From the IMG/VR virus record IMGVR_UViG_3300020187_003193: 64,000 bases of DNA. One strand, 5' to 3'. A program made the position numbers and the translations under genes. The notes below the pieces were generated by a model. That model did no database searches and was not told where the DNA came from. It was given only the letters and a program-made list of their open reading frames with translations. This stretch comes from a virus. Within the stretch, counting starts at the first letter, position 1. The number at the start of each line of letters is the position of its first letter. This document shows positions 5,047 to 40,975 of the stretch, piece after piece.

Positions 5047-5069
5047 ATTAAAAAAACACATTATTTAAA

Positions 5070-6704
5070 ATGTCAAACGTAGTAAATCAATTATTAGAAA
5101 CTGCCAACCCTTATCAGTCTGTACAAAAAGATGCAGCTAGATTAGCAGGGAAATGGGCAAAATCAGGTTTATTAGAAGGAATTTCTAATGACACTGACAA
5201 AGCTAACATGTCTATCATGTTAGAAAACCAAGCTAAACAGCTTGTAATGGAAGCTAACACAACTGGAACAGGAGCGTCTTTCACTGCTGGAACAGGTGAG
5301 CAATACGCTGCAGTAGCTTTACCATTAGTAAGAAAGGTATTCGGACAAATCGCTGCTAAAGAATTCGTTTCTGTACAGCCAATGTCTTTACCTGCTGGAT
5401 TAGTATTTTACTTAGATTTCCAATATGGAACTACTAAGAAGCCATTCACTTCAGGAGATTCAATGTACGGAACTCCATCTGAAAACTTTGGTAACCAAGC
5501 TGCAGGTGGATTATACGGTGCTGGAAGATTTGGTTACTCTGTTAATGAACACACTGCTTCTGTTACTGGTACGCCTGCAACGGCATCTTGGGCTGATGTA
5601 AACTTTACTAGCGAACTATCAGCTTCTGCGGCTACAGGTTCATTGAAAAGCATCACAATTACTTCTGCTTCTATTTCTGCTAATTTAGATGGAGATGCTG
5701 TTCGTTCATTTGTAGTATCTTCTGGTTCTATACTAGAAACTCTTCAATTGCCTGCATTTACAAGTCAAGCTGCATCAGGAGATGTTACTTTTATATTTGA
5801 TAACTTTGAAGGAAATGATTCAAGAATTCAAACTGGTAGTCAAACTTTAAATGTTACTTATTCTAAGAAAACTGCTGATAATGCACGTGGTGATTTCGAA
5901 GATGGTTCAACATTAGCAACTACTGATCCGTCAAGAACTGCCATTTCTATCCCAGAAATCGATGTTCAAATGAGATCTGAAACTATTGCTGCTAAAACAA
6001 GAAAATTGAAAGCACAATGGACACCAGAATTCTCTCAGGATCTTAACGCGTTCCATTCAATCGACGCTGAGGCTGAATTAACTTCAATCTTATCAGAATA
6101 CATTTCTTTAGAAATCGATTTAGAGATCTTAGATATGTTGATTGAAAACGCTCCAACAACTGAAGTATGGTCTGCGAAAGTAGGAAACCAACTTAACGCT
6201 GGTGGAACTGGATTCGATTCTAACACATCTGGTGTATACTATACTCAAATGAGCTGGTTCCAAACTCTTGGAATTAAATTACAAAAAGTATCTAACATCA
6301 TTCACCAAAGAACATTAAGAGGTGGAGCTAACTTTATGGTAGTTTCTCCAACTGTAGCAACTATCTTGGAATCAATTCCTGGATTCGCTGCTGATACTGA
6401 TGGTGATGTAACTAAAGCTTCTTACGCTTTTGGTGTACAGAAAATCGGTGCTTTAAACAGCCGTTACAAAGTGTACAAGAACCCATATATGACTGAAAAC
6501 ACCATTTTAATGGGCTTCAGAGGTAACCAATTCTTAGAATCAGGTGCTGTATATGCTCCATATGTACCACTTATCATGACTCCATTAGTGTACGATCCAA
6601 ATACCTTCACTCCAAGAAAAGGTATCATGACACGTTACGCTAAGAAAATGGTAAGACCAGAATTCTACGGAAAAGTGTTCGTATCTGACTTAAACGTAAT
6701 CTAA
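5070..6704 (+). CDS. Major capsid protein (T4 gp23-like)
   Basis: 544 aa. Motifs PLVRKVF...AKEFVSVQPMSLPAGLVFYLDF, AKTRKLKAQWTPEFSQDLNAFH, YAPYVPL and FTPRKGIMTRYA. Putative maturation site E61/A62. Confidence 0.96.
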   Translation: MSNVVNQLLETANPYQSVQKDAARLAGKWAKSGLLEGISNDTDKANMSIMLENQAKQLVMEANTTGTGASFTAGTGEQYAAVALPLVRKVFGQIAAKEFVSVQPMSLPAGLVFYLDFQYGTTKKPFTSGDSMYGTPSENFGNQAAGGLYGAGRFGYSVNEHTASVTGTPATASWADVNFTSELSASAATGSLKSITITSASISANLDGDAVRSFVVSSGSILETLQLPAFTSQAASGDVTFIFDNFEGNDSRIQTGSQTLNVTYSKKTADNARGDFEDGSTLATTDPSRTAISIPEIDVQMRSETIAAKTRKLKAQWTPEFSQDLNAFHSIDAEAELTSILSEYISLEIDLEILDMLIENAPTTEVWSAKVGNQLNAGGTGFDSNTSGVYYTQMSWFQTLGIKLQKVSNIIHQRTLRGGANFMVVSPTVATILESIPGFAADTDGDVTKASYAFGVQKIGALNSRYKVYKNPYMTENTILMGFRGNQFLESGAVYAPYVPLIMTPLVYDPNTFTPRKGIMTRYAKKMVRPEFYGKVFVSDLNVI

Positions 6705-6735
6705 TCTTAGGATTAAAAATTACCTTTATAAAATT

Positions 6736-6762
6736 AAGCCTCGCGAAAGCGGGGCTTTTTTT
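6736..6762 (+). terminator. Rho-independent terminator after the capsid gene
   Basis: AAGCCTCGC-GAAA-GCGGGGCTT followed by a T run. Confidence 0.9.
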
Positions 6763-6774
6763 ATATTTATATAC

Positions 6775-7002
6775 ATGATAATCTCCGAAATACCATTTGC
6801 TGTATTCCTTGAAAGGAATCCCTACCTAAAAGGTAGGCCTTTAAATGAACAGTTTGTACATTACAACGATTATCTACAAGTAGTTCACTTACAACAACAA
6901 AGCATTGTAAACAGAGGAGGAGATTCCGATTTCCTTCTACAAGAAGACGGCTTTAAAATATTACAAGAAGACGGAAATTCCGGTATTTTAATAAAAACAT
7001 AA
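6775..7002 (+). CDS. Small hypothetical protein, probably virion-associated
   Basis: 75 aa with a duplicated LLQEDG/ILQEDG motif. Upstream sequence is ATATTTATATACATG. Confidence 0.55.
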   Translation: MIISEIPFAVFLERNPYLKGRPLNEQFVHYNDYLQVVHLQQQSIVNRGGDSDFLLQEDGFKILQEDGNSGILIKT

Positions 7003-7004
7003 TA

Positions 7005-8111
7005 ATGGCAAATTTACCTATATCTAGATTAGTATCAGGAACGCAAGCAAACGACGGCGATAAATTCGTTTACGTACAGCAAGGAATTACTAAACAAGTT
7101 GATTATGGTGATCTTCAATCCTCTATAGTAACCGATGTAGACTATATTGACTTTAATACAAGTTCAGTAGTTACAGGTAAACCTGGTAGATTACGTTGGA
7201 ACGATGTTGACGGTACTTTAGATTTAAGTCTTAAAAATGGGAATGTAACATTACAAATTGGGCAAGAAATCAATATTAATGCATATAATAACGAAACCGC
7301 ATCATTATTAGAATCAGAATATAGGGCTGTCTATGTAAGCGGTTCAGTAAGCAACTTCCCAGCAGTTAATCTAGCATCTAATTTAGATAGACGTTCTTCA
7401 GAAAATACTATAGGAATTGTAACAGAAGATATAGCAGCAGGAGAACTTGGTTATATAACAACTCAAGGAATGGTTAGAGACATTGATATGAGTGCCTACA
7501 ATCCTGGCGATACTTTATACTTAGGTGCCAATGATGGGATATTATTAAATGAACCCCCTCTTCCACCTGCACTTACAGTTATTATGGGGTACTGTATAAA
7601 TAACGATGCTACAACGGGTTCAATGTATGTTAATGTTAGAAGTGGATTTGAATATCCACAATATGCCATTGCATATAACTTATCTGACCATACTGCTTCA
7701 GCTGATACAGCAACAATAATTGACTTTGATACACCTCAAGTATTAAGCGGAATATCACTCATAAGTGGTTCCCAATTTACAGTATCAACCCCAGGCCTAT
7801 ATGAATTTACCGTACTCTCTCAGATAAACCGAGCTGCAAGTTCGGGTACTGCTACATTATATTTTTGGGCAAAGAAAAATGGAGTAGATATTCCAAATTC
7901 AAATAATAACCAAAGTATAACGGGAAATACCGGTACTGCTGCAACCTTAATGAGTAAAAATCTTGTTATAGTATTGGAGGAAGGTGATTATGTTGAATTT
8001 TATTGGGCAACAACTGATGCTGATATGATACTAAAATATACCGCAGCAAGCTCCACCCCTACTAGACCAGCAACAGCAGCAGTAAAAGTTACAGCAACAA
8101 GGTTAAGTTAA
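7005..8111 (+). CDS. Putative head decoration/fibre protein with a C-terminal C1q/BclA-like beta domain
   Basis: 368 aa. C-terminal FTVSTPGLYEFTV...LEEGDYVEFYW pattern. Directly follows the capsid gene. Confidence 0.5.
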   Translation: MANLPISRLVSGTQANDGDKFVYVQQGITKQVDYGDLQSSIVTDVDYIDFNTSSVVTGKPGRLRWNDVDGTLDLSLKNGNVTLQIGQEININAYNNETASLLESEYRAVYVSGSVSNFPAVNLASNLDRRSSENTIGIVTEDIAAGELGYITTQGMVRDIDMSAYNPGDTLYLGANDGILLNEPPLPPALTVIMGYCINNDATTGSMYVNVRSGFEYPQYAIAYNLSDHTASADTATIIDFDTPQVLSGISLISGSQFTVSTPGLYEFTVLSQINRAASSGTATLYFWAKKNGVDIPNSNNNQSITGNTGTAATLMSKNLVIVLEEGDYVEFYWATTDADMILKYTAASSTPTRPATAAVKVTATRLS

Positions 8112-8162
8112 TATTTATATAGGAACGTTCTTATATTTTATTAACTAACTAACAAACCGTTT

Positions 8163-8897: not shown

Positions 8898-8924
8898 ATA
8901 TTTATAATAAATACTCACTAAAAC

Positions 8925-9329
8925 ATGGCTGCAGGAAAATATTCTTTCTTAATAGAGCAAGGAGCTACTACTAATTTTGAAATAGTTTACAAAGATTCAA
9001 CGGGAACACCTATTGATTTGACTAACTATCAAGCTAGAATGCAAGTAAGAACTCTTAAAACAGGTTCTTCTGATATATACTTAACTTTATCTTCAAGTTT
9101 ACAAGAAGACGGAACAGGTTTAAGCTTAAGTGGATCTAGTGGTATAAACCCCCCCGAATCTGGATCGATTGGAATATTCATCTCAGCGGCAACATCTTCA
9201 GAATTAAACTTTTCTCAAGGTTACTATGACTTAGAAATAGCCACAGGTAGTGGCCCAACAGCTGTAGTAACTAGATTGTTAGAAGGAGTTGCTCAATTAT
9301 CTCAACAAGTAACTACAGGATCCTTTTAA
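8925..9329 (+). CDS. Small virion structural protein (BppU-like Ig fold)
   Basis: IEQGAT...PIDLTNYQARMQVR...YYDLEI...RLLEG pattern, rich in SGS/TGS. Confidence 0.5.
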   Translation: MAAGKYSFLIEQGATTNFEIVYKDSTGTPIDLTNYQARMQVRTLKTGSSDIYLTLSSSLQEDGTGLSLSGSSGINPPESGSIGIFISAATSSELNFSQGYYDLEIATGSGPTAVVTRLLEGVAQLSQQVTTGSF

Positions 9330-10399
9330 TGGCTAATAAGATAACAGTAAATACAGATACAAGCCAAGTCACGGTACAAAACCCCTCTGCAAACAATGTA
9401 GTACAGGTTAATACTCCTGGACCTCAAGGATCCCCTGGTGAACAGGGCCCACAAGGACCCGCAGGTGAAATACCTACATCAGGCTCATATAGTGGTTCAT
9501 TTAGTGGATCATTTCAAGGAGACGGAACATTATTAACAGGTGTAGCTTCTCCCACAGGATCCTATACAGGTTCCTTTACAGGCTCCGTTTTAGGAGACGT
9601 AATAGGTACAGCTTCACAAGCCGTAACCGCTTCATATGCCCTATTTGCTGTATCGGCTTCACATGAGGTTACACTAGAATTATCATCTTCATTTGCTGAA
9701 ACTGCATCTGTAGCATTACGTGGTGAAGGAGATTTTACAGGTAGCTTTTTAGCTACAGGAGATATTTTACCTGATGCCCATTTTGCCTATGACATAGGTT
9801 CATCTGAAAGGGCATTTAGAGAATTATACTTAAGTGGATCAACTATATACTTAGGTGGAAATAAACTCTCAATTAACGAAGAAGGTACCCTTAAAGTTAC
9901 AAATAACGAATCAGGTGAGCAAACTCCCTCAGATCTTTCGGGTTCATTTACAGGTTCATACTTAGGTTCAGTATCAACAACAGACTTTACCTTTGATGGT
10001 GATACTTTAAACGTATTGGGAGATGTATTTGTACAAGGTACATTAGATGCTGCAACCAAAAACTTTAAAATACAGCACCCAACAATGCCTGGGTACTATT
10101 TAGTACACTCTTCACTTGAAGGACCAGAACGCGGGATGTATGTTAGAGGCAAATTAAAAACTAGCGATACAATTCACTTACCAGATTACTGGAACGAATT
10201 AACAGACGATGTAGATATTACAGTACAACTTACTCCAATAGGAAACTCTTGTACACATTTTGTAAAATCTGTAAATAAACAAGAAATTATAGTTGGATGC
10301 GATTGCGGGGCACCACATTGTTTCTATATTGTACACGCACAACGATACAATGAAGGCAAGTTTGACGTATTACAACCCAAATGGACGAAAAAATTATAA
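9329..10399 (+). CDS. Short fibre/spike protein with a short collagen stretch and a fibre-type C-terminal domain
   Basis: GPQGSPGEQGPQGPAG and many SGSF/TGSF units. C-terminal KNFKIQHP...LVHSSLEGPE...LPDYW...VQLTPIG. Confidence 0.6.
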   Translation: MANKITVNTDTSQVTVQNPSANNVVQVNTPGPQGSPGEQGPQGPAGEIPTSGSYSGSFSGSFQGDGTLLTGVASPTGSYTGSFTGSVLGDVIGTASQAVTASYALFAVSASHEVTLELSSSFAETASVALRGEGDFTGSFLATGDILPDAHFAYDIGSSERAFRELYLSGSTIYLGGNKLSINEEGTLKVTNNESGEQTPSDLSGSFTGSYLGSVSTTDFTFDGDTLNVLGDVFVQGTLDAATKNFKIQHPTMPGYYLVHSSLEGPERGMYVRGKLKTSDTIHLPDYWNELTDDVDITVQLTPIGNSCTHFVKSVNKQEIIVGCDCGAPHCFYIVHAQRYNEGKFDVLQPKWTKKL

Positions 10400-10421
10400 T
10401 ATATTTATATAAAAACACACC

Positions 10422-11570
10422 ATGAATAATCCACTTATATGGAACGGAACATCATATTTCTTCCCAGGCCAAACACCCTTTGGCTTCTACGATAATGATT
10501 CAACTTTCCAAAATGATGCTGATAGAGTAGCTCAATTTTGTGCTACACGTTTAGGATACCCTACAGTTGATGTTGAAATGGGTAGTGGTTCATTTTATGC
10601 ATGTTTTGAAGAAGCCGTAACTACATACGGTAACGAACTTTACCTATATCAAATAAGAAACAACTTCTTAAATTTAGAAGCATCAACAACAGGTTCAACA
10701 TTAAATCAATCTTTAATTAACCCTAACCTAGGTAACACAATTCGCTTAGCTGAAAATTATGCAGCCGAAGCAGGAGCTGGTGGATTCACAACATGGCATT
10801 CAGGTGCTGTAGCGTTATCAGCTTCAGTACAAGAATACGATTTAAAACAATGGGCTGAAGATGAAGGAATTGAAGGGCCAATTGAAATAAAAGAGATATT
10901 TTACCAAAATACACCTGCAATAGTTCGATACTTCGATCCATATGCTGGTACAGGATACGGATCTCAACAATTACTTGACGTATTTGGGTTTGGAAATTAC
11001 TCTCCTGCCGCGAATTTCTTACTAATGCCAATTTATTACGATATTTCTGTAATACAAGCAATAGAATTAAACGATCAAGTTAGAAAATCCGCATATTCAT
11101 TTGAACTTATCAACAATAACTTAAGAATATTCCCAATACCTAATCAAGCTGGTCAATTATTCTTCAAATACATTAAAGTAGATGAAAGAAATGCACCAAC
11201 TGCACAAGGATATGATGGGGGAAACATGGTAACTGACATTTCAAATGTTCCTTATGAAAATCCTACATATCAATATATAAACGCACCTGGTAGGTACTGG
11301 ATATTCGAATACACTTTAGCATTAGCAAAAGAATTACTAGGATACATTAGAGGAAAATATACTCAAGTACCAATCCCTGGAGCTGAAGTAACTTTAAACC
11401 AATCTGATCTATTATCATCAGCAACTGAATTAAAAGCGGCATTAATTGAAAAATTAAGAAACGATTTAGACGAAAATTCTAGAAGGATGCAACTTCAACG
11501 TAAAGCAGAAGAAGCAAATTCAATGAAGGATACATTAGGTCAAGTTCCACTTCCAATCTTTATAGCATAG
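10422..11570 (+). CDS. Neck/head-completion protein (T4 gp13-like)
   Basis: RLGYPTVDVE, YTLALAKELLGYIRGKY...PIPG...LN, C-terminal P(L)P(I)FI. First gene of the neck trio. Confidence 0.7.
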   Translation: MNNPLIWNGTSYFFPGQTPFGFYDNDSTFQNDADRVAQFCATRLGYPTVDVEMGSGSFYACFEEAVTTYGNELYLYQIRNNFLNLEASTTGSTLNQSLINPNLGNTIRLAENYAAEAGAGGFTTWHSGAVALSASVQEYDLKQWAEDEGIEGPIEIKEIFYQNTPAIVRYFDPYAGTGYGSQQLLDVFGFGNYSPAANFLLMPIYYDISVIQAIELNDQVRKSAYSFELINNNLRIFPIPNQAGQLFFKYIKVDERNAPTAQGYDGGNMVTDISNVPYENPTYQYINAPGRYWIFEYTLALAKELLGYIRGKYTQVPIPGAEVTLNQSDLLSSATELKAALIEKLRNDLDENSRRMQLQRKAEEANSMKDTLGQVPLPIFIA

Positions 11571-11571
11571 T

Positions 11572-12063
11572 ATGTCATTATACGGAAGAAGCAGAGATAT
11601 ATCACTATTCCAGGGGCTCAACACAGAGCTCCTGCATAAAATCATCGAACAACAGGTAGGATACTACAAGGTAAAGCTAGATGACACGCCTGCCAACATG
11701 TATGGAGAGGCTCAAAATAAAACGTTTATAGGACCTGTTCTTCTTAAATGTTTATTGGATAGAGGTGCACAGACTGCAACAAACGATAATTTTGGTGTAG
11801 ATAGAAACAGAACACTATCAGCTAGATTCTTAAGACAAGATCTAGTTCATTCTAGTGTGTTCCCTGAAATAGGAGATGTTATATTGTGGAACGAAGATTA
11901 CTATGAAGTAGACAATATAGTTGAAAATCAACTTGTTGTAGGAAAAGATCCGTCTTATCCATATAGCGATACAGTAGACGATTTTGGTTCAAGTTTATCA
12001 ATCATAGTTGAGGCACATTACACAAGACCAGAAAAACTTGGAATTAAAGAACAAAGATTATAA
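11572..12063 (+). CDS. Neck/head-closure protein (T4 gp14-like)
   Basis: 163 aa. NMYGEA and PEIGDVILWNEDYYEV. Follows the gp13-like gene. Confidence 0.6.
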   Translation: MSLYGRSRDISLFQGLNTELLHKIIEQQVGYYKVKLDDTPANMYGEAQNKTFIGPVLLKCLLDRGAQTATNDNFGVDRNRTLSARFLRQDLVHSSVFPEIGDVILWNEDYYEVDNIVENQLVVGKDPSYPYSDTVDDFGSSLSIIVEAHYTRPEKLGIKEQRL

Positions 12064-12935
12064 TGGATTTTAAACCAAGACCATATACAAAACGAGAATT
12101 CTTATCTACACTACAGAATCCATACGAAAACCCTGAAACAAAGGTTGAAGTGGCTCCTGTACAGAAGGTATCCACCGAAGTTAAACCAGGACAACCTGAG
12201 ATTAACAGAGCGGAACAGGTATCGATGAAAGACGATACAAAGAATAAAACGTTTTCAATTGGTTTAGAAGATATAGATGCTGCATTACTATATTACTTAA
12301 AGGATGTAATTAAACCTACAGTAATGCAAAATAGTAAGCAGATAGAAGTACCTGTTATATATGGTTCTCCTGAAAGATGGAAATCGATGCAAGCCGATGG
12401 TTTCTATAGAGACAAAAATGGTAAAACAATGGTTCCTCTTATTATGTTTAAGAGAGAAAGTTTTACTAAAAACAATACACTAGGGAATAAATTAGATGGT
12501 AATAAAGTACATAACGTTCAATATTTTGAAACAACATACTCAAAAAGAAACGTATACGATAACTTTAACTTACTAAGAGATCAAAAACCTCAAAAGGAAT
12601 ATGTGTTGGGTATAATCCCCGATTACATTGATTTAAATTATACACTATCCATATACACTGACTTTACAGTACAAAGTAACCAATTAACGGAGGCAATAGA
12701 ATTTGCAGCTCGTTCATATTGGGGCGATCCTGAAAGATTTATGTTTAGAACAAACATAGAAACATTCAGTACTCCTACATTACTTGAAAATGGCACTGAT
12801 AGAGCAAACCGAGTAGATATGGCGTTGCTTGTCAATGGATATATCATACCTTCAGGTATAAACGCTGCTATGGCTGGACCAAATCCAAAATCATATAATG
12901 TAACTAAAACAAAATTTAAAGAAAACATTGGATAA
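12063..12935 (+). CDS. Tail terminator/sheath stabiliser (T4 gp15-like)
   Basis: VPVIYGSPERW, PLIMFKR and P.YIDLNYTLSIYT. Follows the neck genes. Confidence 0.65.
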   Translation: MDFKPRPYTKREFLSTLQNPYENPETKVEVAPVQKVSTEVKPGQPEINRAEQVSMKDDTKNKTFSIGLEDIDAALLYYLKDVIKPTVMQNSKQIEVPVIYGSPERWKSMQADGFYRDKNGKTMVPLIMFKRESFTKNNTLGNKLDGNKVHNVQYFETTYSKRNVYDNFNLLRDQKPQKEYVLGIIPDYIDLNYTLSIYTDFTVQSNQLTEAIEFAARSYWGDPERFMFRTNIETFSTPTLLENGTDRANRVDMALLVNGYIIPSGINAAMAGPNPKSYNVTKTKFKENIG

Positions 12936-12937
12936 AT

Positions 12938-12968
12938 TTTGAATATTAAATAAAGGTTATTATATTAA
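12938..12968 (+). promoter_or_regulatory. Bacteroidota-type sigma70 promoter (-33 TTTG / -7 TAnnTT) for the glycosyltransferase
   Basis: TTTG-N19-TATATTAA immediately before the ATG at 12974. Confidence 0.6.
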
Positions 12969-12973
12969 ATGTT

Positions 12974-15298: not shown

Positions 15299-15341
15299 TA
15301 TTTATTAGGGAATAATCCTTGGTAAATAGAAATCACAATAA

Positions 15342-18521: not shown

Positions 18522-18891
18522 GAATGTTAGAATAGTACCTGCTTCTGGTTCTATCTACTTCACAGGTGATGGATATGATATAACAGGATCAGTAGTACTT
18601 AAAACTTTAGGGAATACAGAAGACCTTGCTTTCGCTGTTGCCGATAGTAATGAACCTATCCTTCTCATATCAAAAGAATCTGGTAGAGTAGCAGTAGGAA
18701 TATCATCAGCATCAGCTAAATTAGAAGTATTTTCAAACACAGATGAAGATCTTTTATTAATTAGAAACTCCAATGGAGGTATAAAAGTAAACAATGAAGG
18801 AGTTTTAGTATTATCTAACTATGACGGCGAACCTACTCCCGTAAGTGGGGGGATATATTACAGTAATTCCCAATTCTTTGTTGGGCCCTAA
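18514..18891 (+). CDS. Small fibre-associated structural protein
   Basis: 125 aa, overlaps the upstream stop, beta-rich with SGS/TGS/SAS tripeptides. Confidence 0.55.
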   Translation: MAKNVRIVPASGSIYFTGDGYDITGSVVLKTLGNTEDLAFAVADSNEPILLISKESGRVAVGISSASAKLEVFSNTDEDLLLIRNSNGGIKVNNEGVLVLSNYDGEPTPVSGGIYYSNSQFFVGP

Positions 18892-18946
18892 ATATTTATT
18901 AAAGAACAATCACAAATTCAACCCACAACTAAAAAACACATAACAA

Positions 18947-25117: not shown

Positions 25118-25134
25118 CAACTAAATAACAATTT

Positions 25135-25167
25135 AAGAGCCCCTTTGCTAACGCAGAGGGGTTTCTT
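25135..25167 (+). terminator. Rho-independent terminator
   Basis: AAGAGCCCCTTTGC-TAAC-GCAGAGGGGTTTCTT. Confidence 0.8.
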
Positions 25168-25195
25168 ATATTTATGATAAACATACTATAACGTT

Positions 25196-25405
25196 ATGGG
25201 ATTATTAGACAAAATTACAAGAAAAGAACAAGCAGCTCCTTCAACACCTAAGATATCTAAAGAAGACTTATCTTTAAATGCTGAAGAAACAAAAATTTTA
25301 TTACACTTAATTAAAAATAGTAATTTTAAAGGAGATAGTGTAGAATTAGTATACGAACTCACTAAAAAACTCCAGTCAGTACTTACGGTTCTGTCTCAAA
25401 ATTAA
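25196..25405 (+). CDS. Small hypothetical protein, 69 aa
   Basis: Has its own ATATTTAT motif and a GTTATG start context. Confidence 0.6.
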   Translation: MGLLDKITRKEQAAPSTPKISKEDLSLNAEETKILLHLIKNSNFKGDSVELVYELTKKLQSVLTVLSQN

Positions 25406-25481
25406 TATTTATACTGGAGTATTATCGGCCCCTAGGGGAAGTGGACATCCTATGATGTAACCAACCATAATAAAATAGTAT

Positions 25482-28400
25482 ATGCCAAATTGGAAAAAAT
25501 TAATCGTCAGTGGTTCTGACGCAAACCTATCTTCATTACACGTAGCAGGAGCATTAACCGCCTCATCTGCTTACTTAGAATCTGCCTCAATTGGTCATTT
25601 ACAGACCATATACGAGACAGCTTCCGTCATTTATAGCTCAGGTTCAACCAAATTTGGAGATACACCAGATGATACTCATGAAGTAACTGGTTCTTTACTA
25701 GTTAAAGGAAACACAAATGTAGAAGGTCACATTATACCTTCCAATGACAATACCTACGATTTAGGTTCACCTACTAAACAATTTAGAGATTTATTTTTAT
25801 CCTCTGCCTCTTTATATATTGATGGAACAAAAGTTCTATCTTCTAATGCAGATACACTTACTTTTACAACAGATGTAGGACAGAGTATAAAATTACTAGA
25901 GACAGGAGGAGACGATATAACTCTTCAAACTGATACGGGTAATATAGAATTAAAAGGAACTGTAGAAATACAATCCGGTAAAAAAATCACAGATAGTTCA
26001 GGTAATATAGTATTATTTGGAAATTCTATAGGAATAACAGGTAGTATAGAAACTACGGGAACAATAGATGGTATAGACCTGCAAGCATATTCAGGATCAA
26101 TTAATACTAGAATCATATCATTAGAATCGGGTTCAGCAGATGGTACATCAGGAAGCTCAGGATCTTCAGGATCATCGGGTTCATCAGGAACATCAGGTTC
26201 ATCTGGATCTTCAGGTAGCTCAGGTTCTTCAGGTACAAATGGTACAGACGGAACTTCAGGATCATCTGGCTCATCAGGAACATCAGGCTCATCAGGACCT
26301 TCAGGTTCATCTGGTACATCTGGTAGCTCGGGTACTTCAGGTTCAAGTGGTTCAAGTGGTACATCCGGTAGCTCTGGTACTTCAGGTACAAGTGGTTCAT
26401 CAGGAACATCAGGAAATTCAGGCTCAAGCGGTTCTTCAGGTTCATCAGGATCTTCAGGTTCATCTGGTACAGATGGTACATCAGGTTCAAGCGGATCTTC
26501 AGGTTCATCAGGAAGTTCAGGCTCAAGTGGCTCTTCAGGTTCATCTGGTACATCCGGAAGCTCGGGCTCATCAGGTACAAATGGTACAGATGGAACTTCA
26601 GGCTCATCAGGTTCATCAGGTACTTCTGGAGAACAGGGAATACAGGGAGAAACAGGCCCTGCTGGTGACAATGGTACATCAGGAAGTTCAGGATCTTCAG
26701 GATCAGATGGAACTTCAGGTTCATCAGGTACTTCAGGTGTAGATGGAGCAGACGGAACATCCGGTAGCTCAGGTTCATCTGGAATAGATGGAACAAGTGG
26801 TGTTGATGGAACTTCAGGTTCTTCAGGTACATCAGGAGAAGCAGGCTCAAGTGGCTCATCAGGTTCATCAGGTTCTTCAGGAACATCTGGCGAAACCGGC
26901 CCAACAGGCCCAGCAGGTAATGACGGAACATCAGGAAGCTCAGGTTCTTCAGGTGCAATTGGCCCCGTAGGTCCCTTAGGACCAACAGGACCAACAGGAG
27001 CACAAGGTCCAACAGGACCACAAGGAGTAGCAGGTACAGGTATCACAATGCAAGGTAGCGTTGCGACAACAGGAGATTTACCTAGCTCAAACAATACACA
27101 AGGTGATGCTTATATAGTCCAAACAGACGATTCACTTCATATATGGGATGGAACAGTATGGGTAAGTGGAGGTTCAATTCAAGGACCAACTGGTCCAACA
27201 GGAGCTACAGGACCAACTGGACCAACTGGACCACAAGGTTTAACAGGATCTGATGGAGCAACTGGCCCAACAGGACCAACTGGAGCATCAGGTACATCAG
27301 GAAGTTCAGGTTCATCCGGAGCAACCGGAGCTACAGGAGCTACTGGCCCACAAGGTGCTACAGGACCTGCAGGTACTTCTGGTTCTTCAGGAACATCAGG
27401 AGCTACAGGAGCTACTGGCCCACAGGGTGCTACAGGACCACAAGGTGCAACTGGACCAACAGGCGCAACAGGAGCAACAGGCGCTTCAGGTACATCAGGA
27501 AGTTCAGGAACATCAGGAGCAACAGGCGCAACAGGTGCAACTGGAGCATCAGGTACATCAGGCTCTTCAGGCACATCGGGTTCATCAGGAACATCAGGAA
27601 GTTCAGGAACATCAGGCGCAACAGGAGCCACAGGTGCTACTGGTCCACAAGGTGCAACAGGTCCCGCAGGAACATCAGGTTCAAGTGGTACATCTGGAGC
27701 AACAGGAGCCACAGGTGCAACTGGAGCTACTGGAGCATCAGGTACATCGGGCTCATCTGGAACTTCAGGTTCATCTGGAACATCAGGTGTAAATGGAGGA
27801 ACTGGACCAACAGGACCTACTGGAGCAGCAGGAACATCAGGTTCATCAGGAACATCAGGTGCTACAGGACCTACAGGACCAACAGGCGCAAAAGGTAATA
27901 CTGGAAATACTGGACCTACGGGCCCAACAGGAGCAACAGGTGCTTCAGGAACATCAGGTTCTTCTGGTACATCAGGTACAGTTCCCTTTGCTACTGCAGC
28001 GGTAACAAGTACAACTACTACAGCTTTTATTTCTGAGTTGTATAGTGATGGATACTTAGCTACAAACTCACTTAGAGCAGGAAAAACATCTTGGTCATAT
28101 GCAGGAAATGGTGATTTATCAGATACAGGATATGGTACCTTCGAATTAGCAGGCTGTTCTATATTAGGATGGGATGCTGGAGGGCTTGAAACTGTAATGG
28201 TTATTAGACCCACTACTGGGGGTGGAGGAGGACAAATCCTAGTTTATAATAACCAGTCCACATCATATTCACCAGGCTGGAGACAAATCCTAACATCAAC
28301 TACAGACGGATATCTACCTAGGTTGTATGATACAAACAACACAAACTATTATTTAGATCCTGCAAGTACATCTGTTTTTAATACAATATCTGCTGGGGGT

Positions 28401-29330
28401 AATATTACTGCTACTGAATTTTATGCCAATAACTGGTTTAGAAATAATAATACCAATGAAGGCATGTACAACCAAGCAACGGGGCAACATTGGTATTCTG
28501 ATGATGATGATTGGTGGAACATAGGAGGAGGAACTACTGCTAATGGTATTAGGTTTAGAGATGAGCATGGTGGTACTATAAGGGGAGCAGTTTATGCTGA
28601 TAATACAAATAGTGTTGGTTTATTAGATTCTGATCTAAACTGGGCTATAAAACATGTTCGGGATTCAAGAACTGAATTTTACATAAACAATGTTGAAGTA
28701 GCAGAAATAAACGCAGACTATTTACAACATAATAGCGATGTTAGGTCTCCTTTATTTTATATATCAGATAGTACAGCTAATAGATTTACGGCAGGGGCAC
28801 TTTATTTAAGCTCCACCTCTCCTACTATGTACTTTAGAGACACCAATGGAAATTCTGCAATGCTCCATAATAACTCTAATTTATTTTATATATTAAGGGG
28901 TAATACTAATTCTGAAACATGGACGCAAGTTAATGGACAGTGGCCTGTTTATTGGGATTTATCAAATAATAATGCTACTTTTGGAGGGAATTTAACTTTA
29001 GCAGGTACTATAACTGAAAATTCAGATATAAAGTTAAAAGAAAATATAGAAACTATAGATGGTGCACTGGATAAAGTAAACCAACTTAGAGGAGTATATT
29101 ATAATAAAATAGTAGACGAAGATAAAAAAAGAAGAATAGGTGTAATAGCACAAGAAATTCAAGAAGTTCTTCCTGAAGTTGTGGATCTACATCAAGATGC
29201 AGAAGATACTGAAGGTACGCTAACTGTATCATATAGTAATATTACAGCTTTGCTTATTGAAGGTATGAAAGAGTTATCAAAACAAAACAAAGATTTGCTC
29301 GCTAGAATAGAAAAATTAGAAAAACAATAA
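25482..29330 (+). CDS. Collagen-like tail fibre with a receptor-binding region and a C-terminal peptidase S74 domain
   Basis: 1282 aa. Gly-X-Y blocks at 26142-27041 and 27183-27977 are separated by a small knob domain. YYLDPAS and NNWFR modules. C-terminal SDIKLKENI...LRGVYY...GVIAQE. Confidence 0.85.
26142..27977 (+). repeat. Gly-X-Y repeats ([15 protein letters not shown]) interrupted once by a ~47-aa knob
   Basis: Gly at every third residue in both blocks. Confidence 0.95.
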
Positions 29331-29333
29331 ATT

Positions 29334-29660
29334 ATGAATATTACTTATACCTGGTCAATTACAGGACTAAAAAGATCCCCATCATTAAACGGATTAACTA
29401 ATGTTGTTACTGGGATCAAATTTAACTACACAGGAGTAGATTCAGAATCTGGAGAAAGTTATACCTTTCCAGGAGCAGTTCCAGTAGGAGAACCTTCCCC
29501 TGATAACTTTACATCCTTTGAGAGTTTAACTGAAGCTGATATTATTAGTTGGGCACAAGCAAATCATCCTACAGACCATATGAATAAAAGGGTTGAGGAA
29601 GCTATTGCTAGGAAAATTTCTCCTATTGAAGAAGATATTCCTCTCCCATGGTCAAGTTAG
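29334..29660 (+). CDS. Small fibre-associated protein
   Basis: 108 aa. ITYTWSITGLK...FESLTEADIISW, a type commonly found right after S74-bearing fibre genes. Confidence 0.5.
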   Translation: MNITYTWSITGLKRSPSLNGLTNVVTGIKFNYTGVDSESGESYTFPGAVPVGEPSPDNFTSFESLTEADIISWAQANHPTDHMNKRVEEAIARKISPIEEDIPLPWSS

Positions 29661-29755
29661 TTATAAAAACTTAAACAAAACTAATAAAGTTTATTCAAAA
29701 TAATTAATATTTATCATAGAATAAAGCTCATTAACCCAACTCAAAACAACAAACA

Positions 29756-32584
29756 ATGCAAATACACGGCGCAGAAATAATTGGAGAATTATCCCTAGAT
29801 CCCAATGCAATAGCAGATCTAACAGGTTCATTTTCAGGTTCTCATTCGGGATCATTCACAGGTTCTTTCCTAGGTGACGGATCAAATTTAACAGGTGTTA
29901 CCGCTGAATGGGATGGTTCTCATACAGGGAATGGTTCAATTTCAGGAGACCTTACTGTAGGTAATTTAATTACTGATGGTAATGTAGATGGTGTAGATGT
30001 TTCTGCATTAGATACCAGAGTAACAGATGTAGAAGGTGATGTAGCAGCAATTTTACTATCCGCAGATGCTGATAAAGATTCATTTGCTGAAATCGTAACC
30101 TTAATCAACTCTGTTGATACAACTAACGACAGTGCATTTGCGTCTCACGCAACTGATACAGACAACCCACACTCTGTTACAAAATCACAAGTTGGGTTAG
30201 GAAATGCTGATAACACATCTGATGCCAATAAACCAATATCTACTGCACAACAAGCAGCATTAGACTTAAAAGCTGATATCGCTACTCTAGATAGCACATA
30301 CGCAACCGATGCTCAAGTAACAAATGCAGTTTCTGCTTTAAGTGGATCTGCTTCTGCTGATAGAACATCAATTAAAGCCACACTTTCAGCTTTAGATAGT
30401 ACATATGCTACAGATGCTCAAGTAACAAGCGCAGTTTCTGCTTTAAGTAGTTCAGCAGCAGCTAAATCAGCTATAAATGCTGCAAACATTGCTACTAACA
30501 CTTCAGCAATTGCAGCTTTAGATAGTACATATGCTACAGATGCTCAAGTTACAAGTGCTGTAAACGTACTTAGTGGTTCAGCTGCTGCAAAACAAGCAAT
30601 TAACGCGGCTGCAATCGCAAGCATAAATGCAAAAGATCCTGTATTAACAGTATCTGGAGACGCAAGTGGTACAGCTACTTTTACCAATTTAGGTAATGCT
30701 ACATTAAGTTTAACTATTGCAGATGATTCTCACAACCACGTTATTTCTAACGTAGATGGATTACAAGCAGCCCTTGATTCAAAATCTAGTGGTGCTGATT
30801 TAACAACATTAACCGGAAGAGTAAGTACTGCCGAAGGTGAAATCGATGCTTTACAATTAGATTCAGCTTCATTCTCAACAAGAGTATTAGCAAACGAAAG
30901 TAAATTATCAGGAATTGAAGCAGGCGCCACAGGTGATCAAACAGCAGCAGAAATTTTAACTGCTATTAAAACAGTTGATGGAGCAGGAAGTGGATTAGAT
31001 GCTGATTTATTAGACGGACAGTCATCAGCATACTATGCTACTGCAACATCAGTATCTACAAACACATCAGCAATTGCTACTATTAACGCTAAAGATCCTG
31101 TATTAACAGTATCTGGAGATGCAAGTGGAACAGCAACATTCACAAACTTAGGTAACGCTTCAATGACGTTAACCATCGCTGATGATTCACACAACCATAC
31201 TATTGCTAACGTTGATGGTTTACAAACAGCTCTTAATGCAAAAGCTCCATTAGCTTCACCAGCATTAACTGGCAACCCAACTGCCCCTACACAAACTGGG
31301 ACAGATGAATCTACTAAGATTGCTACTACAGCCTTTGTACAAGGTAGAATTGATGCTATTATAGGAACTGCAGGTTCAACTTTAGATACATTAGGAGAAT
31401 TATCCGCTTCAATGGCAGCTGACGAATCAGGATTAGCGGCATTAACAACAGAAGTAGGAACAAAATTAGCAAAAGCTTCTAACCTATCAGATTTAACAAA
31501 CGCTGGAGCTGCAAGAACAAATATTGGATTAGGATCAGGTAATAACGTAGCCTTTACAGGAGTTACTACCGATACTCTTAGTGCAAATGGTTTATTAGAA
31601 CAAGCCTCAGAATCTACCACATTAGTAATTAGCCCAACAGGGGTTGTAGGATTTAGAGAAAATGCTGCTTCTTCTGGAACATCAGGTTCTTCAGGAACTT
31701 CAGGTACTTCAGGTTCATCGGGAACCTCAGGAACATCAGGTTCATCAGGAACTTCAGGAGCAACAGGAGCAACTGGACCTACAGGACCAACAGGTGCAAC
31801 AGGAGCCTCAGGTTCATCGGGAACATCAGGAACTTCAGGTAGTTCAGGAACTTCAGGTTCATCCGGAACTTCAGGAGCAACAGGAGCAACTGGGCCTACA
31901 GGACCAACGGGTGCAACAGGAGCTAAAGGTAACACAGGTAACACAGGAGCCGCAGGAACATCAGGTAGTTCGGGAACATCAGGTAGTTCAGGAACCTCCG
32001 GTGTAAAAGGAAATACAGGAGCAACAGGACCAACAGGAGCATCAGGCTCATCCGGAACTTCAGGTTCATCCGGAACCTCAGGTGTAAACGGTGGAACAGG
32101 TCCAACAGGACCAACTGGACCAACAGGACCTGCAGGACCAAGTACGGTAACTACTATTTCATTAGCAGACCGGATTCAACATACAGGCGATACTGATACT
32201 TATATTCAATTCCATGCAGCAAACCAATGGAGAGTTGTAACAGGTGGTGCTGAAAGATTAGAAGTAAATAACAGTGCAGTAACAGTAACAGGTACATTTA
32301 CAGAAAACTCCGATAGAAGATTAAAAGAAAACATAGTTCAAATTGGAGGTGCTCTTAGTTTAACAGAACAATTAAGAGGTGTATACTATAACAGAAGCGA
32401 TAGAGATGACAAATCTAAAATGGTTGGATTTATAGCTCAAGAAGTACAAGAAGTAATACCTGAAGTTGTAACTACCAACGAAGAAACAGGAATTTTATCT
32501 GTTTCATATACCCACCTTATAGCAGTTTTAGTAGAATCAATTAAGGAATTATCTGCTAGAGTAAAAGAATTAGAAAGTAAATAA
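29756..32584 (+). CDS. Mosaic fibre (coiled-coil modules plus Gly-X-Y block) with a C-terminal peptidase S74 domain
   Basis: 942 aa. Shares modules with the 18947 and 15342 ORFs. Motifs GLDADLLDG, PLASPALTGNPTAPT and C-terminal SDRRLKENI. Confidence 0.82.
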   Translation: MQIHGAEIIGELSLDPNAIADLTGSFSGSHSGSFTGSFLGDGSNLTGVTAEWDGSHTGNGSISGDLTVGNLITDGNVDGVDVSALDTRVTDVEGDVAAILLSADADKDSFAEIVTLINSVDTTNDSAFASHATDTDNPHSVTKSQVGLGNADNTSDANKPISTAQQAALDLKADIATLDSTYATDAQVTNAVSALSGSASADRTSIKATLSALDSTYATDAQVTSAVSALSSSAAAKSAINAANIATNTSAIAALDSTYATDAQVTSAVNVLSGSAAAKQAINAAAIASINAKDPVLTVSGDASGTATFTNLGNATLSLTIADDSHNHVISNVDGLQAALDSKSSGADLTTLTGRVSTAEGEIDALQLDSASFSTRVLANESKLSGIEAGATGDQTAAEILTAIKTVDGAGSGLDADLLDGQSSAYYATATSVSTNTSAIATINAKDPVLTVSGDASGTATFTNLGNASMTLTIADDSHNHTIANVDGLQTALNAKAPLASPALTGNPTAPTQTGTDESTKIATTAFVQGRIDAIIGTAGSTLDTLGELSASMAADESGLAALTTEVGTKLAKASNLSDLTNAGAARTNIGLGSGNNVAFTGVTTDTLSANGLLEQASESTTLVISPTGVVGFRENAASSGTSGSSGTSGTSGSSGTSGTSGSSGTSGATGATGPTGPTGATGASGSSGTSGTSGSSGTSGSSGTSGATGATGPTGPTGATGAKGNTGNTGAAGTSGSSGTSGSSGTSGVKGNTGATGPTGASGSSGTSGSSGTSGVNGGTGPTGPTGPTGPAGPSTVTTISLADRIQHTGDTDTYIQFHAANQWRVVTGGAERLEVNNSAVTVTGTFTENSDRRLKENIVQIGGALSLTEQLRGVYYNRSDRDDKSKMVGFIAQEVQEVIPEVVTTNEETGILSVSYTHLIAVLVESIKELSARVKELESK
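31676..32140 (+). repeat. Gly-X-Y repeat block (about 50 triplets)
   Basis: [12 protein letters not shown] register. Confidence 0.93.
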
Positions 32585-32604
32585 TTCTAATTAATATAAA
32601 AGTA

Positions 32605-32648
32605 AAGGGGATATCATTTGGATATCCCCTTCTTTTTTCTTATCTTGT
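32605..32648 (+). terminator. Rho-independent terminator overlapping a Bacteroidota-type promoter
   Basis: AAGGGGATATC-atttg-GATATCCCCTT plus T tract. TTTG (32617) -N20- TATCTTGT (32641). Confidence 0.8.
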
Positions 32649-32685
32649 AATACTTTCAAATATTTATATATATAAAAACACAGTT

Positions 32686-32943
32686 ATGGCATTACAACAA
32701 AACAGAGTAACAGAAGAGGAATTAAACGAAATCGAACAATTCCAAAAAAACATTAACCAATTAACATTTCAACTAGGACAAATCACACTAAGAAGAATGG
32801 ATCTAGACCAACAAGAAGAAATTCTAGAATCAAGACACTTAGAACTACTTAAAGATGAAAAACAACTAGGAGATAAGTTAAAAGAGAAATATGGTACTGC
32901 TCAAATAGACCTAAAAACAGGCGAACTTAGTACTATCGAATAG
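32686..32943 (+). CDS. Small coiled-coil hypothetical protein upstream of the sheath
   Basis: 85 aa, ending LKEKYGTAQIDLKTGE. Confidence 0.6.
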   Translation: MALQQNRVTEEELNEIEQFQKNINQLTFQLGQITLRRMDLDQQEEILESRHLELLKDEKQLGDKLKEKYGTAQIDLKTGELSTIE

Positions 32944-32996
32944 TATTTTTAAGACTCTTTCACATATTTATCGTTGATAAAATAATTTAACAAACA

Positions 32997-34724
32997 ATGG
33001 CTGAAACATTACTATCCCCAGGAGTATTAACACGTGAAAACGATCAAACGTTAATCACACAAGGTCCTATCACAGCAGGTGCTGCTATTTTAGGCCCTAC
33101 TGTAAAAGGTCCTGTTAACGTACCTACGTTAGTTACTTCTTACAGTGATTATAAAAATAAATTTGGTGGCTCTTTTTCAAGTGCAAGTATTAATTACGAA
33201 TACTTAACTTCAATTGCTGCTTACAACTACTTTACACAAGGTGGAGAAACATTACTTGTAACACGTGTTGTTAATAATGGAGATGGTGATTATATTTCTG
33301 CAACAGCAGAAATTACAGCAGAAACTGGATCATTTACACTAGAAACATTATCAGTAGGTGAAATAATGAACAACTCAGGAAGTGTATCTGAAAGTGGTTC
33401 ATTAAATCAAGGTACTGTAGACAACGTACGTTGGGAAGTTGCTAACGTAAACACAGGAAGTGGTACTTTCAACTTATTAATCCGTAGAGGAGATGATAAT
33501 AGTAAGTCAAAAACTATCCTAGAATCATTTACAGAATTATCATTAGATCCAAATTCACCAAACTATATCGAACAAGTAATTGGTAACCAAGCTAAAGTAT
33601 TAGCTACGGATAGCGATGACAATATCTATATTGAAACTACAGGTTCTTATGTAAATAACAGCCGTTACGTAAGAGTATCTTCTGTAACAGATCCTACATA
33701 CAACTATTTCGATAACGACGGTATTGCAAAAACATTATACGCGGGACATTTACCTGTTGTAGGTAGTGGTTCACTAGAAGGAGCTTTCGATAGCGCAACT
33801 GGAGCACTATATGGTAGTGGTTCTAACGGAACATTAGGAATGTTCGAAGGAATTAATTCAGACAGTATCCAAGGTTTATTACCTGACAACTATACATCTT
33901 CATTATCATTATTACAGAACGAAGACGAATACGATTTCGAAATTCTAATCGTTCCTGGAGCTACAATTGAAAATGCTTCTGCTACAGTAGCTTCTGCAAT
34001 TTCAACAGTAACAGAAAGAGGAGATGCAATAGCGGTAGTAGATACTAGAGATTACGGCGCTACATTAAACCAAACAATCACATCAGCACAAACACAAGAT
34101 TCAAGTTATGCTGCAACATACTGGCCATGGGTTCAAGTATTATCAAACGAAACTGGAAAGTTAGTTTGGGTACCTGCATCAACCGTAGTACCAGGAGTAT
34201 ACGCAACTAACGATAGATTAGGAGCTGAATGGTTCGCACCTGCTGGATTCAACAGAGGTGGAGTAGGCGGAGTAATCCAAGCTGAAAGAAAATTAAGCCC
34301 TGCAGATAGAGATAAACTATACTTAGGTAAAGTAAACCCAATCGCTACATTCCCAGGACAAGGTCCAGTAATATTCGGACAGAAAACATTACAATCAAAA
34401 GCAACAGCTTTAGATAGAGTAAATGTTAGAAGATTATTAATTGAACTTAAGAGAACAATTGGTAATGTTGCTGAAGGATTATTATTCGAACAAAATACAG
34501 CTGCAACAAGAAACAGATTCTTAAACCAAGTTAACCCTTACTTAGAATCTATCCAACAAAGACAAGGATTATATGCCTATAGAGTTGTAATGGATGATAC
34601 AAACAACACAGCTGATATAATTGATAGAAATCAAATGGTAGGACAGATATTCATCCAACCAACTAGAACAGCAGAATATATTATCCTAGATTTCAACGTA
34701 ACACCGACAGGGGTTGAATTCTAA
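32997..34724 (+). CDS. Contractile tail sheath protein (gp18-like)
   Basis: LLSPGVLTREND, YWPWVQV, WFAPAGFNRG, IFGQKTLQ...ALDRVNVRRLLI and IFIQPTRTAEYIILDF. Confidence 0.96.
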   Translation: MAETLLSPGVLTRENDQTLITQGPITAGAAILGPTVKGPVNVPTLVTSYSDYKNKFGGSFSSASINYEYLTSIAAYNYFTQGGETLLVTRVVNNGDGDYISATAEITAETGSFTLETLSVGEIMNNSGSVSESGSLNQGTVDNVRWEVANVNTGSGTFNLLIRRGDDNSKSKTILESFTELSLDPNSPNYIEQVIGNQAKVLATDSDDNIYIETTGSYVNNSRYVRVSSVTDPTYNYFDNDGIAKTLYAGHLPVVGSGSLEGAFDSATGALYGSGSNGTLGMFEGINSDSIQGLLPDNYTSSLSLLQNEDEYDFEILIVPGATIENASATVASAISTVTERGDAIAVVDTRDYGATLNQTITSAQTQDSSYAATYWPWVQVLSNETGKLVWVPASTVVPGVYATNDRLGAEWFAPAGFNRGGVGGVIQAERKLSPADRDKLYLGKVNPIATFPGQGPVIFGQKTLQSKATALDRVNVRRLLIELKRTIGNVAEGLLFEQNTAATRNRFLNQVNPYLESIQQRQGLYAYRVVMDDTNNTADIIDRNQMVGQIFIQPTRTAEYIILDFNVTPTGVEF

Positions 34725-38600: not shown

Positions 38601-38631
38601 AATATTTATAACAAACCCAAATAATAATAAT

Positions 38632-40970: not shown

Positions 40971-40975
40971 ATGTT

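Follow-up and report, generated by a model that had tools for sequence, protein, structure and literature searches.

In a 64,000-nucleotide stretch of viral DNA (IMG/VR virus record IMGVR_UViG_3300020187_003193; hereafter the window), which comprises late and replication genes of a T4-like myophage, the outward-facing virion proteins carry the short motif [ST][GA]S at 5 to 11 times the frequency expected by chance. The motif is real, depends on the order of its residues and is selected at the protein level. It is a feature of a large aquatic clade of T4-like phages and not of one genome. A sequence-only reading of the window had proposed that the tripeptide is the acceptor site of the glycosyltransferase encoded by open reading frame (ORF) 12974, and that it was selected as such across the whole exterior of the particle. 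We found that ORF 12974 neither created the motif nor is needed to maintain it.

Seven non-repeat virion proteins were scored: the capsid protein, the products of ORFs 7005, 8925, 9329, 10422 and 18514, and the tail sheath. Expected counts were obtained by shuffling residues within blocks of 15, 25 or 40 residues, which preserves the local richness in Ser, Thr, Gly and Ala. The motif is present 45 times, against 8.7–9.1 ± 2.9 expected with the three block sizes. None of 3000 block shuffles reached 45, and the excess was significant protein by protein (p ≤ 0.011 with blocks, p ≤ 0.0065 for each of the seven when whole proteins were shuffled). The individual counts (capsid 7, ORF 7005 5, ORF 8925 5, ORF 9329 14, ORF 10422 3, ORF 18514 3, sheath 8) are exactly those tallied by the sequence-only reading, and the enrichment it reported persists after correction for local composition (45 vs about 9).

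The enrichment concerns an ordered unit. The same residues in other orders are at background ([GA]S[ST] 10, [GA][ST]S 7, [ST]S[GA] 11, S[ST][GA] 7), and the form with Thr in third position, [ST][GA]T, occurs 14 times. When all tripeptides are ranked, TGS (16 vs 2.2 expected) and SGS (16 vs 2.7) take ranks 1 and 2, with or without the repeat-bearing ORF 9329. The excess depends on the middle residue: it is found for Gly ([ST]GS, 32 vs 4.9) and Ala ([ST]AS, 13 vs 3.9) but not for Ser ([ST]SS, 5 vs 5.2). Furthermore, the residue that follows the motif is hydrophobic at 69% of the sites, against a background of 32%, and the extended form is found 31 times where 2.8 ± 1.7 are expected. The actual unit is thus [ST]-[GA]-S-hydrophobic. 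An artefact of composition is ruled out by the shuffles at three block sizes, the permutation controls and the ranking of all tripeptides.

Codons vary at all three positions of the motif, and both families of serine codons (TCN and AGY) are used at positions 1 and 3. This free choice of codons indicates selection on the protein and rules out a motif acting at the level of DNA. No similarity was found among the motif-bearing regions, fibre modules excepted, which excludes a common inserted domain as the source of the pattern. Other short patterns (D[ST][AILVMT], N-x-S/T, S[GA][GA], [DN]G[ST] and [ST]G[DN]) are all at expectation in the same proteins. The first of these is the Bacteroidota sequon, from which the phage motif had been said to differ; its frequency (10 vs 10.3 expected) bears this out.

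The 32 other proteins of the window, when pooled, show no excess (7 vs 12.2 expected). Nor is there an excess in the products of ORFs 11572 and 12063, the tail tube, three large tail/baseplate proteins and the non-structural proteins. The protease, scaffold candidate, tube, single-stranded DNA-binding protein (SSB), helicase and ribonucleotide reductase (RNR) large subunit are motif-free, as the sequence-only reading had stated; its inclusion of a PolA in this list is slightly wrong if the 5'-3' exonuclease encoded by ORF 48767 was meant, since that protein has one motif. The extension of the motif to the whole virion exterior was also overstated, because the three large tail/baseplate proteins (36399–44167) have 1 motif where about 5 are expected. 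The fibres, counted outside their collagen-like runs, have 12 vs 2.2 in the fibre encoded at 15342 and 45 vs 15.4, 10 vs 2.9 and 9 vs 5.6 in the other three, the last of these not being significant.

Within the capsid and sheath proteins, the motif is restricted to particular segments. The gp23-like major capsid protein (5070..6704, 544 aa; Pfam Gp23, E 5.5e-77) has all seven motifs in residues 162–257 (nt 5553–5840). Its profile can be aligned to T4 gp23 only outside approximately residues 131–296, which places the motif segment at the position of the T4 insertion domain. The tail sheath (32997..34724, 575 aa; Pfam Phage_sheath_1 and 1C, PHROG 23) has all eight in residues 62–276 (nt 33180–33824), and can be aligned to T4 gp18 only in its C-terminal core, the motif-bearing N-terminal part being the variable region. 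The alignments to T4 gp23 and gp18 thus support the earlier assignment of the motifs to the insertion-domain segment and to the variable N-terminal domains of the sheath.

The AlphaFold model of the sheath has a predicted local distance difference test (pLDDT) score of 70.7 and values of 79–90 over residues 140–250. In this model, the middle residue of all eight motifs is in coil (the coil fraction in residues 50–300 is about 0.54), position 1 either ends a strand or opens a loop, and in 5 of the 8 the next strand or bridge begins at most two residues past the motif Ser. The model of the capsid protein is poor (pLDDT 57, 70–82 in the insertion segment), and a fold search with it recovered only T4 gp23. 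In its insertion segment, the three Gly-type motifs are in coil beside strands and those of Ala type in strand or helix. Judged at the level of domains, the motif sits at exposed strand-loop-strand junctions of outward-facing proteins. The surfaces concerned belong to the insertion domain of the capsid protein, the candidate cement protein, one neck protein, the outer sheath domains and the fibres. Gly or Ala corresponds to the turn and the hydrophobic residue to the beginning of the following strand, and Ser is nearly obligatory at position 3. What is specific to the lineage is the flanking hydroxyl residues, in whose columns motif-poor relatives have Asn, Asp, Arg or Gln.

The motif excess is retained, often at the same positions, in approximately 240 environmental relatives (records of which are labelled L or G followed by a number; the near-complete G018 serves as a stand-in for the whole genome of the window). 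In 81 capsids (60–87% identity, together with the named relatives) the motif is about 2.6 times more frequent than expected and always in the same segment. The recurrent sites are 162, 171, 184, 199, 218, 247 and 255 in the numbering of the window; all 81 have S184, and at least 90% retain S186. In 80 sheaths (63–84% identity) there are 711 motifs vs 146 expected, with TGS215 and SGS257 in 80 of 80, and the 62 members of the family of the neck protein 10422 have about 4.5 times the expected number. A further sample, built around the uncultured phage LR756508, is motif-rich too (capsids 329 vs 135). The control families remain poor across relatives: 1 vs 8.7 expected for ORF 11572, 10 vs 23 for ORF 12063, and no motif in the tail tube here and in 9 relatives. 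Motif serines are more conserved than other serines of the same domains (0.86 vs 0.60 in the sheath, 0.49 vs 0.28 in the capsid), and Thr is rare at position 3 (1.7%, 13% and 3.8% in three families).

No excess is found in the T4-like coliphage FL15 (13 vs 11.7), in the tail region of LR756508 (13 vs 13.0), in the closest relative of LR756508 or in Rhodothermus phage RM378 (16 vs 10.1). FL15, LR756508 and RM378 being at background, a general trait of myophage structural proteins is ruled out. No close relatives of RM378 were found in IMG/VR, so no contrasts could be added there. In the motif columns, motif-poor relatives have DxN, NGD, RGN, QGT or KAP and retain the Gly and the following aromatic residue; the motif columns of the neck protein 10422 have DxN, KAP or TSS in relatives. 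The insertion domain of LR756508 is acidic, with 19.5% Asp+Glu and 14.2% Ser+Thr, against 6.5% and 25.5% in motif-rich relatives. This 484-kb uncultured phage (L214; 202–209 kb of LR756508) also has two tandem sheath paralogues of about 825 aa, both without the motif.

If ORF 12974 had selected the motif, relatives with and without the gene should differ. Its orthologues are present in L011, L025, L076, L077 and L087 and in the close relatives G018, G019 and G022, where, when the region is seen, the gene always follows the homologue of ORF 12063 in the structural module. Further orthologues are in Microcystis phage Mel-JY01, G023, G033 and G034. No TibC-like domain, the kind that forms the C-terminal half of the 12974 protein, was found in seven relatives that are 90–100% complete (G001–G004 and G024–G026) or in Flavobacterium phage immuto. 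G001–G004 have no GT9 Pfam match, G001–G003 give no tblastn match even at E ≤ 1, and no second TibC-like copy was found in the carrier G018. The ratio of observed to expected motifs in the capsid is 2.6 in complete non-carriers and 2.15 in carriers. It is 2.65 vs 7.7 in the neck protein (small N) and 2.6 vs 4.05 in the sheath, so that neck and sheath proteins of non-carriers are still enriched. Scans of all ORFs of the genomes show that large virion proteins are enriched in a similar way with the gene (G018, 297 vs 110) and without it (G001 83 vs 49, G002 218 vs 103, G003 241 vs 94).

Carriers are scattered over at least five places of the capsid tree, four contrasts between a carrier and its sister show no difference in capsid counts, and in the carriers L076, L077 and L087 the capsid motifs number no more than 4, 1 and 2, respectively. 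Since relatives without ORF 12974 carry the motif just as densely, this gene did not shape it. The idea that the motif is an acceptor site selected by this transferase is therefore contradicted by the seven 90–100% complete non-carriers and immuto; equal abundance in relatives lacking the gene is one of the outcomes that the sequence-only reading had named as its refutation.

The protein encoded by ORF 12974 is nonetheless a credible protein glycosyltransferase. It is a 774-aa fusion of an N-terminal GT4 half (12974..14140; Pfam Glycos_transf_1, E 2.2e-16; PHROG 2170), which has only generic GT4 matches in the PDB, and a C-terminal half of TibC/Aah type, i.e., of the BAHT family (14180..15298). 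Residues 403–769 match TibC (PDB 4RB4/4RAP) with an E value of 7e-52 over TibC residues 27–382, and this half passes the NCBIfam equivalog model TIGR04414, named 'autotransporter strand-loop-strand O-heptosyltransferase', with 299.6 bits (cut-off 200; positions 17–372 of 374). The catalytic base Asp110 is kept, its counterpart in the phage protein being the Asp of GDTLAW (4RB4 is a structure of the D110A variant of TibC), as are all four iron-finger cysteines (339, 342, 358 and 370). Among the sugar-binding residues, Lys230 and Trp305 are kept, Thr226 is replaced by Ser and Arg286 by Ile; Pro300 of TibC is Ser, as in Aah. The tip of the beta-hairpin thumb, where TibC has two hydrophobic residues that serve the assembly of a dodecamer, is half conserved, with Phe265 replaced by Trp and Val266 by Glu, followed by a 5-residue insertion. 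The C-terminal half is thus, judging from its sequence, a TibC/Aah-family protein-serine O-glycosyltransferase. The sequence-only reading was right to call the protein a glycosyltransferase, and a domain of this family makes virion glycosylation a reasonable idea.

In TibC, the R286A change abolished or largely diminished activity, and a role of Asp110 has been described as well (PMC4358343). The change of Arg286 to Ile suggests that the donor sugar may differ from that of TibC. A phage-encoded pathway to ADP-heptose, the donor used by the bacterial enzymes, was considered and rejected, as a search of three carriers revealed no GmhA-type SIS domain. Enzymes of the BAHT family (TibC–TibA and Aah–AIDA-I of Escherichia coli) are cytoplasmic, directed to Ser, recognise a strand-loop-strand structure and not a strict sequence, and are encoded beside the gene of their substrate (PMC4358343, PMC3835316). 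The TibA sites of TibC are NSGGAV and TSAAV, in which Ser and not Thr is modified. The type of site preferred by this family appears to resemble the predicted strand-loop-strand setting of the phage motif. The phage enzyme differs from the bacterial ones in being encoded by a virus and fused to a GT4 domain, in the Ile and in the Glu at the second residue of the thumb tip, and in the absence of any autotransporter gene among its neighbours, which are neck and collagen-like fibre genes. Moreover, S[GA][GA] is not enriched, and the phage motif persists without the enzyme.

TibC-like domains are rare among phages, being present in 4 of 50,697 GenBank phage records: Mel-JY01 and three records of megaphages. 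The latter (LR756501.1 and LR756503.1, 580162–581193; LR756504.1, 457157–458215) are uncultured phages of 636–735 kb whose domain is 34–43% identical to that of the window. The Mel-JY01 gene (L002, record 4750–8430) is annotated 'methyltransferase FkbM' and is a 1234-aa frame that matches both halves of the 12974 protein (49% and 41% identity). It has an extra middle segment and looks like a triple fusion of GT4, methyltransferase and TibC-like domains.

Another set of glycosyltransferases follows the motif more closely. A cassette encoding a PD-(D/E)XK nuclease, GT4a (about 478 aa), GT4b (about 430 aa), a small protein and a GT2, in this order, was found in every near-complete motif-rich relative examined (L174:5030–11184, i.e., 25–31 kb in G018; 54–61 kb in G001; 62–67 kb in G002; 45–51 kb in G003). 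GT4b is present in 9 of 9 near-complete (90–100%) motif-rich genomes and in immuto and Mel-JY01, these two named phages having both GT4a and GT4b. No GT4b was found in the motif-less LR756508, whose GT4a is a distant one. In RM378, the gene after a GT4a-like one shows hardly any similarity and could at best be a strongly diverged GT4b, and the T4-like FL15 has neither. If the tree is rooted on the coliphage, a rooting made uncertain by the very long T4 branch, the LR756508 lineage is nested among motif-rich lineages, which would imply a joint loss of the motif and GT4b in that lineage. The DNA of immuto has canonical dA, dC and dT, its dG being replaced by fdPreQ1, and no glycosylated nucleoside was reported (PMC10516641); the glycosyltransferases of this phage thus probably have a substrate other than DNA. 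The core GT4-GT4-GT2 cassette co-distributes with the motif better than the TibC-like gene does, a conclusion that is thinly supported because it depends on one independent contrast.

What does the motif do? The single most likely explanation is a clade-wide O-glycosylation of the virion that is read from a turn motif, although we put it forward tentatively and the attachment of sugar itself is a prediction. On this view, enzymes of the phage would O-glycosylate the virion surface in the cytoplasm, with the motif as recognition or acceptor site. The enzyme selecting it cannot be the GT4+TibC-like fusion of ORF 12974, which is an accessory cassette of some lineages only, always in the structural module; the best candidate for a clade-wide enzyme is the core GT4-GT4-GT2 cassette. 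Where the fusion is present, its TibC-like half could plausibly add a sugar to Ser at strand-loop-strand sites, its likeliest substrates being the fibres encoded next door, and the GT4 half would then extend the glycan. The complete scenario is more doubtful: an aquatic T4-like clade would coat heads, necks, sheaths and fibres, inside the host cytoplasm, with O-glycans through core glycosyltransferases that read [ST]-[GA]-S-hydrophobic on folded proteins, and mobile TibC-like+GT4 cassettes would add a second, lineage-specific glycan. Several observations weigh against glycosylation. The link between GT4b and the motif is essentially the one contrast provided by the LR756508 and RM378 lineage, and the GT4 pair is encoded beside a PD-(D/E)XK nuclease, outside the structural module. 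The large tail/baseplate proteins are poor in the motif. As regards the TibC-like enzyme, Arg286 is required for TibC activity and is the residue lost in ORF 12974, no phage GmhA was found in the three carriers, and the TibA-type acceptor pattern S[GA][GA] is at 5 vs 7.6. Finally, the strong conservation of several sites could be accounted for by structure alone, and x-Gly-Ser-hydrophobic is also the look of an ordinary type II' hairpin.

These last points lead to an explanation that ranks close behind, though we consider it doubtful: the clade may simply build the tight turns of its exposed beta-rich domains as Ser/Thr-Gly-Ser-hydrophobic, giving a neutral, hydroxyl-rich surface that no enzyme reads. 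In its favour are the loop positions, next to strands, of all eight motifs of the sheath and of the three Gly-type ones of the capsid, the turn residues NGD, RGN, DxN and QGT in the columns of relatives that keep the Gly and the aromatic residue, the sites that are invariant over 80 sequences and the independence of motif density from the TibC-like transferase. Yet the common turn tripeptides [DN]G[ST] and [ST]G[DN] show no excess in these proteins, the Ala variant is enriched 3.3-fold and lies in strand or helix, not in turns, in the capsid model, and the same folds in FL15, RM378 and LR756508 manage without the motif; convergence in unrelated domains and the near-exclusion of Thr from position 3 call for an additional pressure. 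That the tripeptide is the sequon of the 12974 transferase, whose selection would have spread it over the virion exterior, we regard as improbable, and as a cause of the enrichment ORF 12974 is already largely refuted. Its C-terminal half is a bona fide protein-Ser O-glycosyltransferase of a family acting on strand-loop-strand sites in the cytoplasm, the gene is embedded in the structural module beside Ser-rich fibres here and in L011, L025 and G018, and the excess in the neck family is somewhat higher in carriers. However, the motif is as dense in non-carriers as in carriers and occupies the same positions, L076, L077 and L087 carry the gene with few capsid motifs, and the gene is both scattered on the capsid tree and rare among phage records. 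It is similarly unlikely that the motif serves another function of exposed Ser, such as phosphorylation, acylation or the binding of polysaccharide, mucus or a host surface glycan. The restriction of the motif to surfaces, its Ser specificity and its convergence across folds would suit any reader of exposed Ser, whether or not sugar is involved; but domain searches of the window proteins revealed no kinase or acyltransferase in the structural module, the clade encodes many glycosyltransferases, and a binding role would not obviously need a strict order of residues.

Glycosylation of the virion, if it occurs here, would differ from the systems known so far. In mycobacteriophages, phage glycosyltransferases associated with structural genes O-glycosylate the virion, with glycans on capsid and tail proteins (PMC12619734, in its summary of Freeman et al. 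2023). According to the same source, these glycans were shown chemically at the C-termini of capsid and tail-tube subunits of actinobacterial siphophages (PMC12619734). Here, the sites are predicted ones, are internal turn motifs in many proteins of a T4-like myophage, and spare the tube. The O-glycosylation of Bacteroidota, which are probably the phylum of the host (Flavobacterium is the host of the nearest cultured relative), is alike in using a three-residue sequon centred on Ser/Thr, but the sequon D-(S/T)-(A/I/L/V/M/T) is different and is not enriched in the virion proteins of the window. Besides, the host system acts in the periplasm and virions assemble in the cytoplasm. In the chlorovirus PBCV-1, a eukaryotic virus, virus-encoded glycosyltransferases act on the capsid protein at non-canonical sites and the glycans are N-linked (PMC5408694, PMC9614988). 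The best PDB match of the core GT4a of the clade is the chlorovirus protein B736L (E 6.9e-5), a match too weak to be counted as evidence.

The genes of the window are all on the + strand. A prohead protease (3103) comes first in the late region, followed by the capsid gene and by ORF 7005 (7005..8111), which encodes a 368-aa protein with 5 motifs vs 1.1 expected; it matches Pfam Phage_cement_2 at 23.5 bits, just below the cut-off of 24, and is possibly a head decoration or cement protein. A gene for a PhoH-like ATPase (8163–8897) lies inside the head/neck block, between ORF 7005 and ORF 8925, a placement kept in most relatives. In L087, a 191-aa ORF between PhoH and the neck gene (L087:4092–4667) has 17 motifs vs 2.2 expected. 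ORF 8925 (8925..9329, 134 aa; PHROG 1084, E 4e-20) has 5 motifs vs 1.0, and its homologues in relatives are likewise enriched. It is followed by a 356-aa fibre-like protein with a weak PHROG tail-fibre match (9329..10399; 14 motifs vs 2.1, including runs of the tetrapeptide (S/T)GS(F/Y)), by the 382-aa neck or head-completion protein (10422..11570; PHROG 211 head-tail adaptor, E 1.6e-9) and by the two motif-free neck-region proteins used as negative controls, ORFs 11572 and 12063 (11572..12935; 163 and 290 aa).

Directly downstream of the 12974 transferase is the collagen-like, Ser/Gly-rich fibre (15342..18521; Pfam Collagen, E 2.5e-70), which ends in a Peptidase_S74 chaperone domain and has 88 motifs when the collagen runs are included. 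ORF 18514 (18514..18891, 125 aa) has 3 motifs vs 0.4 expected, and its homologues in L025 and G018 have 4 each. Three more fibre genes (2056, 1282 and 942 aa; Pfam and PHROG tail-fibre matches) and a DUF7936 gene span 18947..32584; of the four fibre genes (15342–32584), three have collagen-like runs and Peptidase_S74 ends. The sheath gene is followed by that of the tail tube (34765..35250; PHROG 4542), a buried, motif-free control, and by those of the baseplate hub (35348) and the other tail/baseplate proteins. Further downstream are encoded a gp32-like SSB, a RecA-like protein, the 5'-3' exonuclease, two thymidylate-synthase paralogues, a DnaB-like helicase, both RNR subunits and two 2OG-Fe(II) (2-oxoglutarate and iron) oxygenases. 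The thymidylate-synthase-family genes (49798–50664 and 58974–59849) are 8 kb apart and 68% identical, and one of them may have a diverged role, e.g., as a deoxynucleotide hydroxymethylase. The oxygenase genes (58402–58977 and 61313–61903) lie in this replication and nucleotide-metabolism region, and the product of ORF 61313 has 2 motifs vs 0.2 expected. By capsid identity, the nearest named relatives are immuto (59.5%), LR756508 (50.9%), Mel-JY01 (50.7%) and RM378 (37.5%). Motif-enriched proteins also occur elsewhere in related genomes: a block at 81–95 kb of G018 (L177:1478–14976) encodes five such proteins of 353, 1786, 348, 1083 and 576 aa (e.g., 31 vs 4.8 and 32 vs 4.4), for which a PHROG search gave no match, and comparable blocks of large proteins are present in G001–G003.

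Even as a structural idiom only, the motif would show strikingly how unrelated domains of one virion can converge in sequence, and it would help to recognise outward-facing proteins in phage genomes that lack annotation. The question can be answered, because the clade has cultured members without the TibC-like enzyme (immuto) and with it (Mel-JY01). If virion glycosylation is confirmed, the motif would be the first sequon-like code for this process in phages, and ORF 12974 would provide the first role of the BAHT family outside autotransporters, extending TibC/Aah enzymes from bacterial adhesins to virus particles. If the motif marks a sugar, then widespread environmental phages would have a genetically encoded glycan coat that is predictable from sequence, which would matter for the recognition of hosts, the stability of particles, their adsorption to organic matter and their escape from grazers or defences.

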